From the IMG/VR virus record IMGVR_UViG_3300017746_000001, positions 64,785-128,784 of that record: a stretch of 64,000 bases of DNA. One strand, written 5' to 3'. Below the pieces are notes generated by a model. The model did not search any database and was not told the DNA's origin. It saw only the letters and a list, made by a program, of their open reading frames with translations. Of the stretch, positions 4,760 to 51,371 are shown piece after piece. Position 1 is the stretch's first letter, and every line of letters starts with the position of its first letter. Both the position numbers and the translations under genes were made by a program. This DNA is from a virus.

Positions 4760-7279
4760 ATGGCCGAAGACCTTGTGATGCATTGGTTGGTTCGGCTTAG
4801 AGACATTTCAAACAATAGAGTCCCAGACATTTCATTGCTCAATGTTGCTCGAAGATTGGGTGGTGTTTCTGGAGACAAACCCCTTGAGAGCAAGTATTAT
4901 CGGGAAAAGGAACAGATAGATGATTCGGTTTTAGAAAAAATAGTCGATGGCTTGAAAGAAGCCTACAACAAAGATAGAGTAGTACCTGGAGAAAATGTAG
5001 GTGTTATTGCGGCTCATTCCATTTCTGAACCTGGTACTCAGATGACAATGAGGACATTTCATTATGCAGGGGTCGCGAATACGGTCAATCCGTTGGATGC
5101 GATGATTGCGGAACAATCGATGGTTCGAAGAATATACACAATGGGTCTTGCATTGGGTGAAGATATTAAATTAGATAGAGAAAAGGCCGAAAAATTGCGT
5201 TTTGGCGTTATGAGAACAAAATTGGGAGATGTTTGCGATATTGATTTCATAGATTATGAATCACAAGATGATATTGTGATTACAATGAAAAAGAAGTCTT
5301 CGGAAGATTCTGATGAAGAATGGGCGGCACTCAATAGTGACAATAGGTTTCCATCTTCTGATGAACTTGTTGAAGCGTTTCAGACTGTTTTCTTTTTCAA
5401 TTACGCTGGAGACCGGCGGTCTGATCCAGCAACGAGAGGAATGGAGATGCCTGGTTTGAGGTCGAACATTTCTGTTGGTAAAAATGAAGATGATTCGGTA
5501 TTTGTCAGGATGCCTCACTTCCCTGCTCGGTATAGGACTTCCTTACTGCACCTATTACACAATCTAGAGATTTGCAACAACTGTTCTTACCCCATACAAT
5601 ACATGAAAACACAACACCATTCTGAAAAAACCAAAGTAATTTCTAGAGATGATGAATCGGTGCCTTCCAACGAGGATTACTTGGCGATGGCAAAGAATTA
5701 CATGGACTTTGTTGAAAGTGGAGACATAGGCCAGATTGGGTTTGTCGAGGACTTAGCCCCAAAGAATAGGGAATCTTTGGCCGATGATGCCGTAGCCGAA
5801 GACCTCTTTGAAAAAATAGTTGAGGCTTCAAACGACTCAGAGGTTGAGAACTTTGAGGAATTATCTTACGGTTCTCCAGAATGGGCATTAGGGATTCGTA
5901 AGCTCTGGACTGCTACGCCTGCACACTATACTTTGGAGTTAGCCACTCAGACAGATTTCAAGTGCTGCAGAAGATGTGGCTTGGGTTGGCAGTTAGCTTC
6001 GGCAACACTTCGGCAAGTTGGAGACATAGACATAGACTACCTTATGTCGGAAGATATTTCGATTACAGATAAAACAAAAGTAAAGGATGGTTTTACCAAT
6101 TTGTATAGTCAGTTGACTAAAATTGCAGATCACCCACTAGATGATGTCAATTACGAGATTGTAAGTAAAGGTGATTCTAAAGGTAAGCAGATTCCATCCG
6201 ATGTTTATGAGGGCGTTTATCCTGGTTCTGGCCGCGAAGGTTCACTTACAGATTATCCTATACAAACAATGTCTTCTGGCAGAGGAATTGCAGGAGGCGT
6301 TGAGGGAGAGTATTTCCTATATGTTGTAGGCTCAGACACTCGAGGTTCGTCTGATTTCGTTTCTTCCTTACTTAGTGGCCCTGCAGCGAGAAGTTACTTC
6401 AATTCACCTATTGCTAACGGAAAGGGCTTTTCTAAGGATGTTTGGAAGGATAAACAAAGAGCGTCTTTCGCAGGTTATTTTGCTTTGACCGATGGAGATG
6501 ATAGGTTTGATTTCATGCGTTCAACTTGTGATGATCCGCGACAAGTGTACCATGCTTTAGGGATAGAGCCCGCTAGGATGGTTTTGTTAGAGAATTTGTA
6601 CCATATTGAAACAAATAGCGATGCAGATATAGCAGAGTTCGGAATTTCAAGTGCGGGGCTAGGAGTCCACATTAGCCACATGAGTTTGTTGATTGATGCA
6701 CTTTGTAGCGGAACTACCATGACCACTATCAGGAGTCAATCTTCCATCCAGGGAGGGCAAGGCATCGTTTCTAGAAAAGGCTCTATATCCAAGCAGTTAC
6801 CAGATGGTTCGCTCGTTAATTATGGAGAGATGTTAGCCATCGCATCTTATGAAACAGCAAATAGAGTCTTAATGGATGCCTCTTTAATGGGTGTCGTTGA
6901 TAGAATTCGTTCACTTAAAGGAGTACAGATTGTAGGAAATTTCGAAAATATAGGTTTTGATGGCACACCTCACAGAAGTAAAGGAGAAAATCTGCATCTT
7001 GTTGATGAATTGATAGCCCTACAAGGAGTAAAAGGGACAAAAGGCATAGGTGGGTTGAAAAAGCAAATCATCGATGAAATGGATTCCTATGTAAGTGAAT
7101 TATTCAGTGAAGGCTATACAATTACTGGTATGATGGAACTTCGAGAGTATGGCCCTCAGTTTGCACAATCTGACAAGTTCGCAATCTTGGCTCGCGACCC
7201 TGAATTTTTAGAACTCAAGTCAAAGCTCAAACGGGTTTTGGCTCGAATAGAAGAGATAAGAAATATTCTTGCGATCTAA
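4760..7279 (+). CDS. rpoA2: DNA-directed RNA polymerase subunit A'' (Rpo1C)-like protein with large insertion
   Basis: [31 protein letters not shown] trigger-loop region; C-terminal HMSLLIDAL and LAIASYET...GVVDRI blocks match A''. Confidence 0.9.
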
Positions 7280-29217: not shown

Positions 29218-29751
29218 TTATTCTTTTTCCGATTTTATATCTGCTATTGTTGCCGTAAAGGCCGCTTTAGCATCTGTTTCGTTTAGTATTTCTTTTACAA
29301 ATTCATATCCCGATGGAACACCATCGTGGAGGGGGAGGCACTCTTCATAGCACTCGTAGGCTCCTTCTGCCCATTCTTCTGCGTCACCGTCGCTAGAAAT
29401 TGTAATTTCATCTCCTAAGTGGTGTTTGGCGAGCAACAAAGTTGCTGTAACCAATCCGTCGTATTCCTTTCTCGCAGTCTTGCAGAAATTCAATACCATA
29501 TCTTCGTCTTTTCTCCAACTACTTTGAATCGGTTTCCTTTTTAAGACGAATGTTTCGTGTCCACCGTCGAAACGGATTTCATTATCCGTAATTGTAGGGT
29601 CGTTCCAGTGTTCGTATTGATTGTTTTGTTTAGCTCTTTCAAGTATTGGGCTTCCTTCAAGCAGTTGCTTGGCATCCCTTGTCATATTATTCCATTTTTT
29701 ATCGGACACTTTCTTGTCCTTTTTCATATACCAATAGTGTGTATATCCCAT
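29218..29751 (-). CDS. phage-type conserved protein
   Basis: motif-led; MGYTHYW...FCKTARKEYD...SSDG. Confidence 0.75.
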   Translation of the reverse strand: MGYTHYWYMKKDKKVSDKKWNNMTRDAKQLLEGSPILERAKQNNQYEHWNDPTITDNEIRFDGGHETFVLKRKPIQSSWRKDEDMVLNFCKTARKEYDGLVTATLLLAKHHLGDEITISSDGDAEEWAEGAYECYEECLPLHDGVPSGYEFVKEILNETDAKAAFTATIADIKSEKE

Positions 29752-45431: not shown

Positions 45432-45489
45432 GGTCAGTACAGATGCAATCTCCGCATCTCTTACATATTGGACAACAAATGTCGTTCAT
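45403..45489 (-). CDS. 28-aa Cys-rich microprotein (not in ORF track)
   Basis: motif-led MNDICCPICKRCGDCICTDH... Confidence 0.5.
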   Translation of the reverse strand: MNDICCPICKRCGDCICTDHENYNAQEA

Positions 45490-45497
45490 GGTCAGTT

Positions 45498-47136: not shown

Positions 47137-47324
47137 AATGCACCACCTACCTCAAGTTTTTGGAGGTTTGACTCCATAGCATTTGGCAGCAGCGCATTGT
47201 AATACATATCGTAAAACATGGTCAGTTGCCTACTAGACGGTGCGGTTTGACTTTCTCGCTCCCAAAGCGATACAGTCCCTAGGCACCCCCTAGCAGGGTT
47301 GTGATATTCAAATGGTCAAACCAA

Positions 47325-49085
47325 TTACTTAGAACGATTTTTTTGAGACACTTTTTTGGGATTCCTGGCTTTGTGAGCCTTATTTCTTTCATCCCTACTC
47401 TTGTTTCTCATAGCAATCGTTTCCTCGCTGTATGGTACTGCCAGAAGACAAATCGTTGGTTCTCCTGCAAAGTCCTCAACCCTCACTTGAAGGTGGGACG
47501 CATTCTTGCCAATATTCCCGCTTGTTGCGGTCTTGACTACTTGGGGTCTGGCTCTACTAGCATCTCGCGATACCAGTTGGTAGCCATCATTAGCCCCATA
47601 TGGAAGGAACAAGTGGGTCTCGCTCAAAGCATCTATCGCTCGAACGAGTCCAGTCAGTTCGTGTAAAGGATCGGCTTCGACTAATTCCTTCGCCCTATTC
47701 AGTAAGAAACTGAAATTTGTTAGAGCAAGGTCGTCTGAGCCTGTCCTGTTGTTCTGTCCAATTATGTCACATGTAGTCACGCTGCGGTTGAATCCCATAA
47801 CCTCCAAGAACGGAAGTATTAGGCTTCTCACCGTCAAATCGCTGATATTATCCTTAGTCAACCAGATTTGAGACTGCGTCTTACCGTATTTGTTTGGCTT
47901 GTTCGCGTTCTCTACAGTTCTGGATGATTTCTTGAAGGCGCTGATGTGGAGTTTAATTCCATATGGGTGATCAAAATTCCAGTTAACCTCTTTGGCTTCC
48001 TGAAGCTGATTGCCCTCTAGTTGCCCTCCATGGGCAGCCACCAGTAGACTTCGTATCATATCTATGCTCAGAGGGGTTTTCCCACTAATCATAAAGTTCA
48101 ACATAGGATGTATAGCGGTTCGGCTTGTCGCAAAGGACATTAAGCCTAGACGCGCTAGAACATTATGCTTGAATGCAAATGCATCGGCAAACCATGACGA
48201 TTCATTGCGCTGGAAGTTCATTTGAGACTGTGTCAACAATCCCATTGCAATAGAGTTAGTCCTTTTTGGGTCAGGGAACGACATTTTTGTGTCTTTACCC
48301 TTACCGGACCTTCTCGGGGCTGATTCTATCTTGAAACAGCCTTGAACTTGCGCATTTTCATCTCCTGGACAAGTAACGATGTCATAGAGAGTCCATGTCG
48401 AGCATTCTGAAACTGCTTCTGTCATAATAAAGCCGAATTGAACGCCATCAGGCTTGTCTTTGCGGTTGTTAAGCGCTTCAACAAAGTCCTCGACATTCTC
48501 TCGACTGTATAGACCAGACGCAGCTATTCCACTAGACTGCAAATCGGAATGCATCTTTACATCTTCTGCGATGTCGATGCTCATTCCTAGCATGCTAGCA
48601 AATAAACTCGTGTCTCCTCCACCGTCTTCCAACGAAGAAATAATTGCGTATGAAGCTCCAAATCCGCGTGAGATTCTCTTCTCCCCAGGCTTTCGTGGAT
48701 TATCCTCGAATATCTCTGGGTGGCGGTTTTCTAGTTCTGCTAGCCATTGCTTTCTATTGTGCGCATGATCTTTGCCTGTCACTATAACTTTGGAACGGAT
48801 TCCGCAAATATTCGCTTCTCCGTATTTCCCTGTCTGTTGTCGTGCTAGGTCCATCGATTCAATTGCGTTCGCATTGACTTGTGCCTTTTCGCTTTCTTTC
48901 TGTTGGTTTGTGTGTACACTAATGATTTCATCAATTAACAGATGTTTCTTAGGGTAATGTGAGAGTGTTATTCCCATTCCCTTTGCCTGTTCTCTTAGTT
49001 CTACCATTGTGTTCTTATCCATTTTTTCATGTAGTGTAGCCTCTTGTGTGCTACCATTGCCTGTATAATTATTGTAAATTACCAT
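47325..49085 (-). CDS. large hypothetical protein with Rho-N/HeH-like N-terminal segment
   Basis: motif-led; TMVELREQAKGMGI...KKHLLIDEI. Confidence 0.75.
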   Translation of the reverse strand: MVIYNNYTGNGSTQEATLHEKMDKNTMVELREQAKGMGITLSHYPKKHLLIDEIISVHTNQQKESEKAQVNANAIESMDLARQQTGKYGEANICGIRSKVIVTGKDHAHNRKQWLAELENRHPEIFEDNPRKPGEKRISRGFGASYAIISSLEDGGGDTSLFASMLGMSIDIAEDVKMHSDLQSSGIAASGLYSRENVEDFVEALNNRKDKPDGVQFGFIMTEAVSECSTWTLYDIVTCPGDENAQVQGCFKIESAPRRSGKGKDTKMSFPDPKRTNSIAMGLLTQSQMNFQRNESSWFADAFAFKHNVLARLGLMSFATSRTAIHPMLNFMISGKTPLSIDMIRSLLVAAHGGQLEGNQLQEAKEVNWNFDHPYGIKLHISAFKKSSRTVENANKPNKYGKTQSQIWLTKDNISDLTVRSLILPFLEVMGFNRSVTTCDIIGQNNRTGSDDLALTNFSFLLNRAKELVEADPLHELTGLVRAIDALSETHLFLPYGANDGYQLVSRDASRARPQVVKTATSGNIGKNASHLQVRVEDFAGEPTICLLAVPYSEETIAMRNKSRDERNKAHKARNPKKVSQKNRSK

Positions 49086-49099
49086 GGTCAGTCAAATAG

Positions 49100-49650
49100 T
49101 TGAGTATTCTAATTCTAGAGCAGCCTCTCTACTGCAGGCTTGCTAATATTGCAATACTAGCGGGTGCCTTCACTCACGAGTTCTAATTCGTGTATTGAGT
49201 TATTCGAGTTTTACCTCAAATACTACTCTAGAAGGGCTAGACCAAGCGTTCTGCTTTCACAGATTACCATTCTCGCCCCTGGTTGTTTGGCCTTTCGGCC
49301 TGATGGCATCATTTTATCCCCTCTGCAACATCTCTGCTGGAAAGGACTGGACTCAATTATCGGATTTCCACTTCATCCGACCATCATTTTGTGGCCTCTC
49401 GGCCCTAGGTTTGCGAGGTTTCGCTCGCTCCGTTTACCCTCTCGGGCCTCGGTGTAGTTTGTATGAAGCCTCTCGGCTTCGTATGCAACTTCCTTCACCC
49501 TCAATTCCGGAACCCTGCATGGGCCTGCGCACTTTTGGTTGCGCATAGTAATACATGATTAGTTTACGAACCTACTAAATTCTTCTTAACTCATAAAGAA
49601 TCTCGTAGTGAGTTATGCAATAGAAAGCCAAAGGCTTTCTAGTGCTATTT
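49100..49650 (-). ncRNA. candidate large structured RNA
   Basis: several GNRA-capped hairpins on - strand (GGCC-GAAA-GGCC, GGCC-GAGA-GGCC, CCC-GAGA-GGG, GAAGCC-GAGA-GGCTTC, CTGT-GAAA-GCAG); no credible ORF; ends approximate. Confidence 0.65.
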
Positions 49651-49737
49651 CGTAATACATGATTAGTCCGAGATTGTTACTCACCACCTTATCTCGAATC
49701 GGGTGGGTCATAGTATCTGCCATGAAATTTTTTGAAT

Positions 49738-50001
49738 TTACTGCGGGTGCTTTGATTGATGTCTAGCGACTGCAATCACATAATTTGCGTTTTGTTGGGC
49801 TTCTTTCAGTTGTTCTCGACTATTCCTTAAATCTTCTAAGGATTTGTCCCTGACTGCCTTTGTGATGAGCCTTTTCATCCACAAATGTGTGATTTGGTCG
49901 TCTAACTGGCGACCCGTCAACATTCTTGTTTTCATGTTTCCGTTACTTTTCTTTCGGAGAAGTGCATCCGACCCATTGGGATTTTTTTGCGTATTAGGCA
50001 T
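49738..50001 (-). CDS. small basic protein
   Basis: variant motif ACTAACCATG directly after the tRNA CCA. Confidence 0.65.
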   Translation of the reverse strand: MPNTQKNPNGSDALLRKKSNGNMKTRMLTGRQLDDQITHLWMKRLITKAVRDKSLEDLRNSREQLKEAQQNANYVIAVARHQSKHPQ

Positions 50002-50010
50002 GGTTAGTTT

Positions 50011-50087
50011 TGGCGGGTCTAGCAGGGTTCGAACCTGCGGCCTTCCGGTTAAGAGCCGGACGCTCTACCTGACTAAGCTATAGACCC
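50011..50087 (-). tRNA. tRNA-Lys (anticodon CTT), CCA encoded
   Basis: GGGTCTA acceptor stem, TCCGG-CTCTTAA-CCGGA anticodon arm, GGTTCGAACC T-arm, ends GCCA. Confidence 0.95.
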
Positions 50088-50782
50088 TTTTGACCCTCTG
50101 ACGAGGGTTTTGTCGTAAAACATTGTTAGTAGTAACATGTCGGTCTTTCCCGACTGTCTTTGTTTGATGAGATCAAGTCCCATCATGCGTATTTTATCAG
50201 CAATACATTATCAAACTTCCTCGGGCATAGCCCGCACAACATCTTTTCCCTCGACCTAATCGTTAGGGAAATTCGTAGCCTGATTTGTGTTCACCGTTAG
50301 GTGTGTTGCATATCTTCCAGAGGTTAGCTTCTACCAGATTTCTCATTCTCAGAGTCAAGTTACCTGTTGGTAATCCTGTTCTGTGAGGCTGGTTTCGCAA
50401 CGCCGCTTTCGCTTTTTCTCTCTCTCAATACTGCTGTAACGCATTTAGCGTATGTGTATGACACCCAATTCATCCCTAAATGGGGGCCGCCCGCCTTTTT
50501 GTTTCCAAAAATTGGACTTTGGTTTCTGTTCATTCCTCTCAAGGAGGAGGCAACTACGCCCCAAAGTGATTCCAACTAGGTTAATCTGCTAAGAAAAACC
50601 CATTTGGCGGGTTACTCATCATGCATTCGAGCGAGAATAAATCTCGGGATTACTTCGTGAAATGCATGAGTTATTAATCCGGTGTTCCATGTTACTCTCA
50701 CACATTCCTCAATGTTAGCACATTGCTTGTGTAAGTAGATCGTGTAGCCCCTCGGGGCAACCAGATGGAGAACTCTCGTTCT

Positions 50783-50889
50783 CACTATATAGGCCATCGG
50801 CCCTCTAGAAGAGAGCCAAATACAGCCTTTCAGGCGCTTTGACACGCCTTTACACTATATAGGCCAACGGCTCTCTAGAAGAGAGCCAT
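50783..50889. repeat. ~37-bp imperfect direct repeat x2, 70-bp spacing
   Basis: CACTATATAGGCCAWCGGCYCTCTAGAAGAGAGCCA. Confidence 0.85.
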
Positions 50890-50911
50890 AGTTAGTACCA
50901 TATAGAGTAAT

Positions 50912-51371
50912 TACTGTAGTATACGCCATCGGCATTCTTGAACTAGGGACATAAATGCCTCTATTTCGTGTCAAATTAGCCTGTTACCAGGCGTTTTTCG
51001 AACCGTATGGCGATCTGAAGCTATTCACTACAATAAGTTAGTAGTAAATAGCCGCTATACTGTAGCATACGCCATCGGCCTTCTTGAAGAACGGACATTT
51101 CGTACCGTTCTAACTGCAAATCTGCCTGTTTCCAGGTGTCTTCTGAACCGAATAGCGATCTAAAGCTACTTACCACTATAAGTTAGTAGTAAATAGCCGC
51201 TATACTGTAGCATACGCCATCGGCATTTATCAAACAAGCCCTAATAGACTGTTTTTTCGGACCCCTAGGTGATTTTCCTAAGTGATCTGATATTCTTAGC
51301 TCACATATTTGTAAATGTGTGCAAAGTTAATACCGAGTAGCACAATTGCTACTAATTACGCCATCGGCATT
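50912..51371. repeat. ~145-bp imperfect tandem repeats with TACGCCATCGGC cores
   Basis: GCCATCGGC at 50925, 51071, 51216, 51360; ATAAGTTAGTAGTAAATAGCCGCTATACTGTAGCATACGCCATCGGC present twice. Confidence 0.85.

Follow-up and report, generated by a model that had tools for sequence, protein, structure and literature searches.

The second half of a 128,784-bp virus record (IMG/VR record IMGVR_UViG_3300017746_000001), a stretch of 64,000 nucleotides (nt) that is called the window here and whose positions serve as coordinates throughout, carries on its minus strand an element of 479 nt (49086-49564; 471 nt if counted from the ATG at 49556) that is very probably a real, conserved, and transcribed structured RNA. 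The observations behind this assessment are conservation, fold, lack of coding, single copy, synteny, and presence in RNA libraries. We lean slightly towards the further reading that the RNA is processed and stands alone. A new large non-coding RNA had been proposed for this place in the original prediction, which was made from the sequence letters, and the proposal is borne out by the lack of an Rfam match, a conservation above that of the neighbouring genes, a fold on the minus strand, some compensatory changes, and the occurrence in metatranscriptomes.

On the minus strand, a conserved non-coding stretch is followed by a tRNA-Lys(CUU) gene (50087-50011), an open reading frame (ORF) of 87 amino acids (aa; 50001-49738), a gap of 652 nt without a credible ORF (49737-49086), an ORF of 586 aa, and approximately 60 more genes. 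Since copies of the word ACTGACC run from 49092 down to 8622 on the minus strand only, the structured RNA in the gap stands at the head of an ACTGACC array. The window holds 62 copies (shuffles give 5.5), directly followed by ATG in 60 cases and by GTG and ATA in one case each. Relatives were found in marine metagenomes and ocean metatranscriptomes. Eight related loci (L118-L125) are metagenome contigs found by alignment of the 586-aa protein at approximately 50% protein identity, and they carry ACTGACC on the gene strand only. A second lineage is represented by G001, one IMG/VR record of 49.8 kb (39% complete) found by an 18-mer of the RNA core; it is syntenic with the genome of the window, with tblastx identities of mostly ~40-75%, and the order tRNA-Lys, RNA, array is common to both lineages. 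The element and its borders comprise the following features:

49086-49564, minus strand: conserved structured RNA element
49554-49563, minus strand: motif variant ACTAATC and ATG at the 5' edge of the element; in relatives ACTAACA, ACTTACA or ACTGACC, then ATG
49545-49526, minus strand: 5' hairpin UGCGCA-(8 nt)-UGCGCA; missing in G001, loop with a 1-nt indel in relatives
49393-49523, minus strand: 5' core with helices H1, H1a, H2 (GAGA), H3 (GAGA), H4, and H5 (GAGA), covered by the covariance model R1
49480-49465, minus strand: hairpin GAAGCC-GAGA-GGCUUC
49414-49460, minus strand: 47-nt stretch identical in G001 and invariant in alignment A2
49446-49437, minus strand: hairpin CCC-GAGA-GGG
49404-49393, minus strand: hairpin GGCC-GAGA-GGCC
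49302-49385, minus strand: variable module between two GGCCGARAGGCC hairpins
49086-49301, minus strand: 3' domain, comprising H6 (GAAA), a long hairpin tipped by GAAA, four further hairpins, and the long-range helix UUCUAGAG/CUCUAGAA
49300-49289, minus strand: hairpin GGCC-GAAA-GGCC
49262-49251, minus strand: hairpin CUGU-GAAA-GCAG
49086-49092, minus strand: first exact ACTGACC copy in the array, immediately preceding the start codon (ATG) of the 586-aa gene
49565-49737, minus strand: non-conserved spacer, which holds a second 16-nt start word and the hairpin at 49622-49640
49640-49622, minus strand: hairpin AGAAAGCC-UUU-GGCUUUCU in the non-conserved spacer

Conservation, fold, and lack of coding

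By blastn, positions 49564-49386 of the window were approximately 95% identical in all eight loci, and positions 49301-49083 reached 84.5-86% in six loci, with single matches of wider span at 81-89% in L121, L122, and L125. The nucleotide identity of the neighbours was mostly 65-76%, with 65-69% for the 586-aa gene and 68-79% for other genes; two further stretches lay at approximately 85%, and the tRNA at 94-98% in seven of the eight loci. The region of the 87-aa ORF and positions 49565-49737 had no blastn match in the relatives save a weak one of 62 nt in L120 (76%, E 1e-4). From these matches, 49086-49564 is taken as the conserved element. The limits first proposed (49100-49650) thus hold for this part, and not for the stem at 49622-49640, which falls into the spacer. 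Motif copies had also been expected at both ends: the exact ACTGACC is present at 49086-49092, where the element terminates in ...CAACUAUU(U)G-ACUGACC, and the 5' edge has only the variant ACTAATC-ATG. An exact direct repeat of 16 nt (49548-49563 and 49652-49667, 104 nt apart) duplicates the start word, i.e., the motif variant, ATG, and TATTAC; judged by its letters, it looks like a junction duplicated on insertion of a short cassette.

The counterpart in G001 is a homologous RNA of approximately 600 nt that starts approximately 320 nt after tRNA-Lys. It shares with the window an exact stretch of 47 nt (49460-49414, blastn 100%) and the word CAUCAGGCCGAAAGGC, and the rest has diverged. Model R1, a covariance model of the 5' core that was built from the close group only, scored 154 bits in the window, 172-174 bits at the eight loci, and 66.9 bits (E 3e-19) in G001. 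The element is present in a single copy per genome, and the model finds no other in the window or in the rest of the genome.

Within the element, the module at 49385-49302 is shared by the window, L121, and L122 and missing in L118, L119, L120, L123, L124, and L125; a different module of approximately 135-155 nt is found in L121, L123, L124, and L125. The modules sit between copies of the GGCCGARAGGCC hairpin. In its overall build, the RNA combines a strongly conserved 5' core of GNRA-capped hairpins with exchangeable modules at the periphery. The larger module shows weak matches to the 5' core model in L125 (1705-1851), L124 (1660-1751), and L121 (5273-5448), with 18.2, 14.3, and 8.4 bits and E-values from 6.5e-4 to 0.77, and it may have arisen from the core by partial duplication and divergence.

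All seven stems that had been listed for the region were found at their places in the minus-strand reading. A scripted count gave six GNRA hairpins with stems of at least four pairs on the minus strand of 49086-49564, compared to a background of 0.47 (minus strand) and 0.33 (plus strand) per 479-nt window. At least five such hairpins occurred in 3 of 636 windows of the minus strand and in none of 2000 mononucleotide shuffles, and the hairpin word GGCCGARAGGCC is found nowhere outside the element in the 128,784-bp genome. Folding of the 652-nt gap yielded -211 kcal/mol and a z-score of -7.2 on the minus strand; the z-score of the plus strand was -3.8 (20 shuffles for either strand). For the 471-nt element by itself, the minimum free energy z-score was -5.1 (100 shuffles), and the copies in G001 and L119 reached -5.3 and -4.6, respectively.

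The strand difference also bears on a role at the DNA level, in which the element would be part of a replication origin or packaging site in a divergent control region and its transcription incidental. Such a role would agree with the nearby strand-switch point, whose phased ~145-bp repeats and palindromes lie approximately 1.3 kb from the element, and with the conservation of the whole stretch 51079-50000. However, the GNRA loops and G.U pairs exist in the minus-strand reading only, the fold is stronger on that strand by the z-scores given above, pairs alternate between G.U and Watson-Crick, and the depth in one RNA library is uneven (23.5 versus 2.4). We regard a DNA-level role as highly unlikely.

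Covariation was analyzed separately for the two parts of the element. In the model-fitted alignment of the 5' core, 99.3% of the cells pair, compared to 16-46% with a slid partner, and seven pairs changed on both sides, which none of 500 shuffles equalled. Four compensatory pairs are robust. Three of them lie in H2, where GAAGCC-GAGA-GGCUUC is replaced by GGGUC-GAGA-GACCC in G001, and one lies in H5, where GGCC/GGCC is replaced by GCCC/GGGC. In H4 the pairing is kept with a change from G-C to G.U, and the helix AUGCA/UGCAU, taken as homologous, is unchanged in the RNAs of the window and G001. The 3' domain, for which RNAalifold was applied to the close group, has 69 pairs with 98.4% of the cells pairing versus 30-38% when slid; two pairs show double changes and nine show one-sided changes, six of which alternate between G.U and A-U or G-C. 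By our own reading of the two sequences, the module-closing helix, the long hairpin that follows H6, the one preceding ACUCAA, and the helix ACUC/GAGU stand in the same place with different letters. A string search placed H1, H2, H4, the module-closing helix, the H7 tip, the H7 base and H9 of the window, and the outer H10 of G001; other short helix words were mislocated by it, and those helices rest on the reading of predicted folds. Overall, the evidence that the minus strand encodes a folded RNA is good.

A protein-coding or decayed gene is a reading to which we give hardly any weight, even though an ORF beginning with MYYYAQPR... is open over 99-128 codons in all seven relatives examined and follows a motif plus ATG, as the array genes do. 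The frame from this ATG extends over only 40 codons in the window and 9 in G001, and its ends vary after the modules in the relatives. Four separate 1-nt indels distinguish the window from the relatives within approximately 110 nt of otherwise 95% identical sequence. The substitutions are without codon periodicity, with variable columns distributed over the codon phases as 13/12/13 in the 3' domain and 5/5/3 in the core, and 47 nt are identical between genomes whose proteins are mostly 40-75% identical. Across the window, the relatives, and G001, neither a conserved reading frame nor a third-position substitution bias was found in the element.

Transcripts and possible processing

Expression is supported by metatranscriptome contigs: in six runs from five studies, 91-93% of the sampled words of 49086-49564 are present. 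Four runs, one per study, were compared on 47300-51300, and all four have contigs over the element. In X18 (6 million letters) a whole contig of 430 nt covers 49090-49519, and in X20 (9 million letters) a whole contig of 417 nt covers 49091-49507, next to a piece of 156 nt from the 586-aa gene whose depth is lower. The contig of X19 spans 49057-49538. In X15, a contig over 47300-49538 has a depth of 23.5, and the adjoining contig over 49529-49734, in the spacer, has a depth of 2.4. Uncovered parts of the 4-kb stretch in X18, X19, and X20 do not count as evidence of absence. As adjacent depths are uneven and just this piece survives in tiny libraries, the data fit an abundant RNA. The contig ends at 49090 and 49091 come from two studies and fall inside the motif (ACU-GACC), with no loose end there; they are a weak hint at the 3' end of the RNA.

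Two features upstream of the element are relevant for its possible origin:

50011-50087, minus strand: tRNA-Lys(CUU) gene with encoded CCA, upstream of the RNA in seven of the eight loci and in G001
50120-50770, minus strand: conserved, transcribed non-coding stretch

The nearby tRNA that had been noted earlier is real (73.5 bits). No tRNA was found on the L120 contig, which begins 277 bases before the RNA. The distance from the tRNA to the RNA is 447 nt in the window, and in L123 the tRNA ends 9 nt before the start word of the RNA, so that a separate promoter would not fit at this locus. A promoter placed locally ahead of the RNA was rejected for this reason and because the upstream sequence is not conserved. 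No terminator-like T run follows the RNA, and scans for sigma-70 promoters and terminators are uninformative for an archaeal-type system. In L121, a weak match to the tRNA clan (4931-5000; tmRNA model, 16.9 bits, E 4e-4) with the T-arm-like word GGGUUCAAAUCCCC lies approximately 25 nt before the start word. ARAGORN made no tRNA call at these positions, and the match may represent a tRNA-like processing signal.

The upstream stretch is itself conserved and transcribed. Positions 51079-50000 have approximately 86% nucleotide identity in five loci, above most neighbouring genes, and positions 50751-49999 have 84% in L125. RNA runs cover 50123-50476 (a second contig of X18) and 50151-50822 (X15, depth 47), and the fold z-scores on the two strands are -4.1 and -3.8. 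The X18 contig has a loose T run before 50123, as expected for an A-tailed minus-strand RNA, suggesting that an RNA of the minus strand ends there, 36 nt ahead of the tRNA. The stretch may be a second non-coding RNA, or it may be the 5' half of one bipartite RNA or part of the same precursor. Further upstream (50785-50880, minus strand), the palindrome GGCUCUCUUCUAGAG(A/G)GCCG(U/A)UGGCCUAUAUAGUG occurs twice, 70 nt apart, each time followed by a TATA-like word. This repeat pair is a candidate promoter pair of the array transcription unit.

Co-transcription, processing sites, trans action, and any molecular function are what we infer beyond these observations. A long leader would start in the promoter region near 50.8 kb and run via the conserved non-coding stretch and tRNA-Lys into the 60-gene array. 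Processing after the tRNA, or after a tRNA-like element, would determine the 5' end of the RNA, and its 3' end would be freed by a cut within the ACUGACC word or close to it. The RNA would then accumulate as a discrete, stable molecule of approximately 420-480 nt that persists through its fold, and it may act via this fold as a scaffold, a protein-binding RNA or a self-assembling RNA, by analogy with the phage RNAs GOLLD and ROOL. The precursor and the tRNA-processing chain are suggested by the 9-nt spacing in L123, the tRNA-clan match in L121, and the lack of a terminator-like T run. Processing punctuated by tRNAs is familiar from mitochondrial transcripts and from MALAT1 with its mascRNA. 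Similarly, the adjoining tRNA in L123 or the tRNA-like fold in L121 could set the end of the RNA here, whereas 447 nt separate tRNA and RNA in the window.

The same transcripts could alternatively belong to a cis-acting leader that is not a free RNA. Its fold would act on the polymerase or ribosome carrying it, for example for termination-resistant transcription of the 40-kb array or for gating of entry, and the discrete pieces would be stable decay products. In line with this, both lineages invariably have the RNA heading a one-strand array, the sequence behind it lacks an oligo-T terminator, and one RNA-run contig spans the RNA into the first gene. However, relatives have small genes between the RNA and the 586-aa gene, so the RNA is not the leader of one particular gene, and two small runs show the RNA without the downstream gene, with the ends at 49090 and 49091. 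Processive anti-termination leader RNAs such as HK022 put and EAR are likewise folded and located at the head of a long operon; they are bacterial and approximately 70-120 nt long, whereas the RNA here, with its modules and six GNRA loops, is 4-6 times larger, modular, and separate in RNA libraries. A cis-acting leader appears rather unlikely to us, without being far-fetched.

Several points nevertheless weigh against a processed, stand-alone RNA or against parts of the evidence for it. The library data are Logan contigs and not reads, from which strand, level, and true ends are unreadable, and DNA carry-over is possible. The X15 contig is unbroken from the RNA into the 586-aa gene, so either cutting at the motif is incomplete or the contig contains DNA. 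All seven double changes in the 5' core come from G001 alone, and for the three in helix 1 the underlying pairing is a local helix picked in the model fit in place of AUGCA/UGCAU. In the 3' domain, covariation is not above that of shuffles, as 82 of 500 do as well. The covariation is weak because only two lineages are known: the collection of homologues that had been recommended along with a covariation analysis returned the eight loci and G001 and provided four robust pairs, all of them from G001, and the 3' domain was not significant. The high identity could partly result from recent recombination between co-infecting viruses and not from selection. Finally, no partner, catalytic motif or function emerged for the RNA, and the data speak neither for nor against the ribozyme that the original prediction had named beside a new large RNA.

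The array motif and the RNA

The RNA had further been put forward as a candidate partner for the ACTGACC motif, an idea that did not stand up to the comparison of the two lineages. In G001 the motif differs by one letter (ACTGAAC; 50 copies on one strand, 0 on the other, and 44 directly before ATG), and the 47-nt stretch of the RNA core is identical. According to this idea, the RNA would be a guide or catalytic partner that recognises ACUGACC and cuts a polycistronic transcript into monocistronic, near-leaderless mRNAs. The motif and its variants do flank coding and non-coding units alike, including the RNA and the tRNA, the RNA-run contigs of two studies stop inside the motif, and AUGGUCGG in the RNA of the window can pair with CUGACCAU. 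However, AUGGUCGG at 49385 is the sole 8-bp complement, lies in a module that is missing from five of the eight relatives using ACTGACC, and is partly buried in a predicted stem. Sites with at least five contiguous pairs to the motif number 2, 2, 3, and 5 in four RNAs (2 in the window, 5 in G001), compared to 2.9-4.1 in shuffled sequences (3.7 for the window, 4.1 for G001), and GGTCAG is absent from the minus strand around the head of the array. The best motif complements in G001 have 7 bp with two G.U pairs, one of them inside a hairpin by our own reading of the fold, and between the window and G001 no conserved motif complement was found that changes along with the motif. We therefore do not think that the RNA acts by base-pairing with the array motif and consider a guide or catalytic partner very improbable; recognition of the motif through a protein partner is possible. 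A pairing of the motif with the D-loop of the tRNA was also rejected, as it reaches 5 bp only by our own reading and shows no change in G001.

The region around the RNA in G001 has further peculiarities. On the minus strand at 29395-29744 (L140 15395-15744), between the RNA and the first array gene, there are two tandem, folded-looking units of approximately 160 and 190 nt, each of which opens with a motif variant followed by AUACUUAUCAGCGAGAGAUGCGGG. Behind the tRNA lies a short tandem repeat, GAUUUGAUUUGAUUC.

Comparison with known RNAs and genomic context

A cmscan search of Rfam 15 with permissive filters (E<=10) matched no family in 49086-49737, in the G001 copy or in the L121 copy, and the Rfam rows elsewhere were tRNA and chance-level only. 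RNase P, tmRNA, SRP, group I/II introns, GOLLD, ROOL, OLE, HEARO, and IMES are all represented in Rfam. The earlier failure to match RNase P, tmRNA or introns is thus upheld by a search that included GOLLD and ROOL. A group I or II intron was also rejected from the context: the units flanking the RNA (a tRNA or small ORF upstream, various small ORFs or the 586-aa gene downstream) are unrelated and differ between relatives, and they are not two exons of one gene. K-turn, C/D-box, and T-box-like readings were judged by eye, and none was convincing.

Searches for more distant homologues returned little. With the 652-nt gap as query, blastn in distant mode had no match in the phage GenBank collection, and the 586-aa protein, alone and as an alignment, found no relative in IMG/VR. 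An IMG/VR scan with ACTGACCATGGCAA gave single chance matches only, among the 80 loci listed of 117, and L126 was the only result of three scans with words from the core, one of which allowed degenerate letters across the H3 hairpin. In genome contigs, an 18-mer of the 3' tail had 10 matches, all of them chance matches of 18-25 nt by blastn. A glycosyltransferase alignment retrieved G001 again from IMG/VR together with four loci at 24-26% identity, and model R1 had no match in those four loci. No published description of the RNA or the ACTGACC array turned up; the 8,495 candidate RNAs from IMG/VR in PMC10690425 could include the RNA.

The ends of the virus record overlap by 123 nt, direct terminal repeats are present, and its completeness is estimated at 100%. 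The genome encodes a chaperonin whose top matches are archaeal thermosome subunits (319 bits, compared to at most 218 bits for eukaryotic CCT), an 839-aa protein with RNA polymerase A''/Rpb1 domain 5, and a TFIIB-like protein with a weak match (E 0.002) under the curated cut-off. By their sequences, these three proteins point to an archaeal-type virus. To our knowledge, earlier descriptions of large ornate RNAs without a known function concern bacteria and their phages. An RNA of this kind in a virus that encodes a thermosome of archaeal type, a protein resembling RNA polymerase A'', and a weak match to TFIIB, at the head of an unusual array of 60 genes that each carry the same seven letters and ATG, and visible in several ocean metatranscriptomes, would offer a concrete and abundant test case for tRNA-linked giant RNAs in archaeal viruses and for the expression of a punctuated array.

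For comparison, GOLLD is described in PMC12286853 as a phage RNA of several hundred nt and unknown function near tRNA genes or islands, with tRNAs sometimes in its linker and a conserved 3' half. ROOL is described there as a phage-borne large structured RNA, often near tRNA islands, with no known protein partner or function, and both assemble into RNA-only cages (PMC12286853). As far as this source goes, the RNA resembles GOLLD in being virus-encoded beside a tRNA, with tRNA-Lys lying here between the upstream transcribed stretch and the RNA, and in having one half strongly conserved and the other less so; the conserved half is the 5' half here, whereas it is the 3' half in GOLLD. In contrast to GOLLD and ROOL, the RNA has no Rfam match at E<=10 and belongs to an archaeal-type and not a bacterial virus. 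Because the Rfam models do not match, the resemblance is one in kind and not in membership. We would place the RNA as a putative new family among the virus-borne large structured RNAs beside tRNA genes, with a host domain that differs from the described cases. A bolder picture, which we consider quite improbable, would join the upstream transcript (~50770-50120), tRNA-Lys, and the RNA into a single giant RNA of two parts in which the tRNA is embedded. It would correspond to GOLLD in an archaeal virus and form an RNA-only or RNA-protein particle. In another version, the RNA would serve as the RNA component of a particle specific to the virus, which would read ACUGAMC via a protein partner and free near-leaderless mRNAs from the 40-kb precursor.

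The two genes adjoining the gap are:

47325-49085, minus strand: first array gene, encoding 586 aa; 11 proteins at 47-90% identity
49738-50001, minus strand: basic 87-aa ORF headed by ACTAACC-ATG; variable, and missing at this position in some relatives

Neither product belongs to a Pfam or NCBIfam family. For the 586-aa protein, the Atlas scores are at most 0.78, and its AlphaFold2 model is poor (mean predicted local distance difference test score of 42). A tiny Cys-rich ORF (MN.xCCPxCKRCGDCIC-TDH) was noted at 45438-45496 of the window, where the next ACTGACC is formed by the ORF's own codons for Thr-Asp-His. The same ORF is located directly after the RNA in four relatives (L118 621-680 from the tRNA start, and equivalents) and approximately 160 nt further on in L121.

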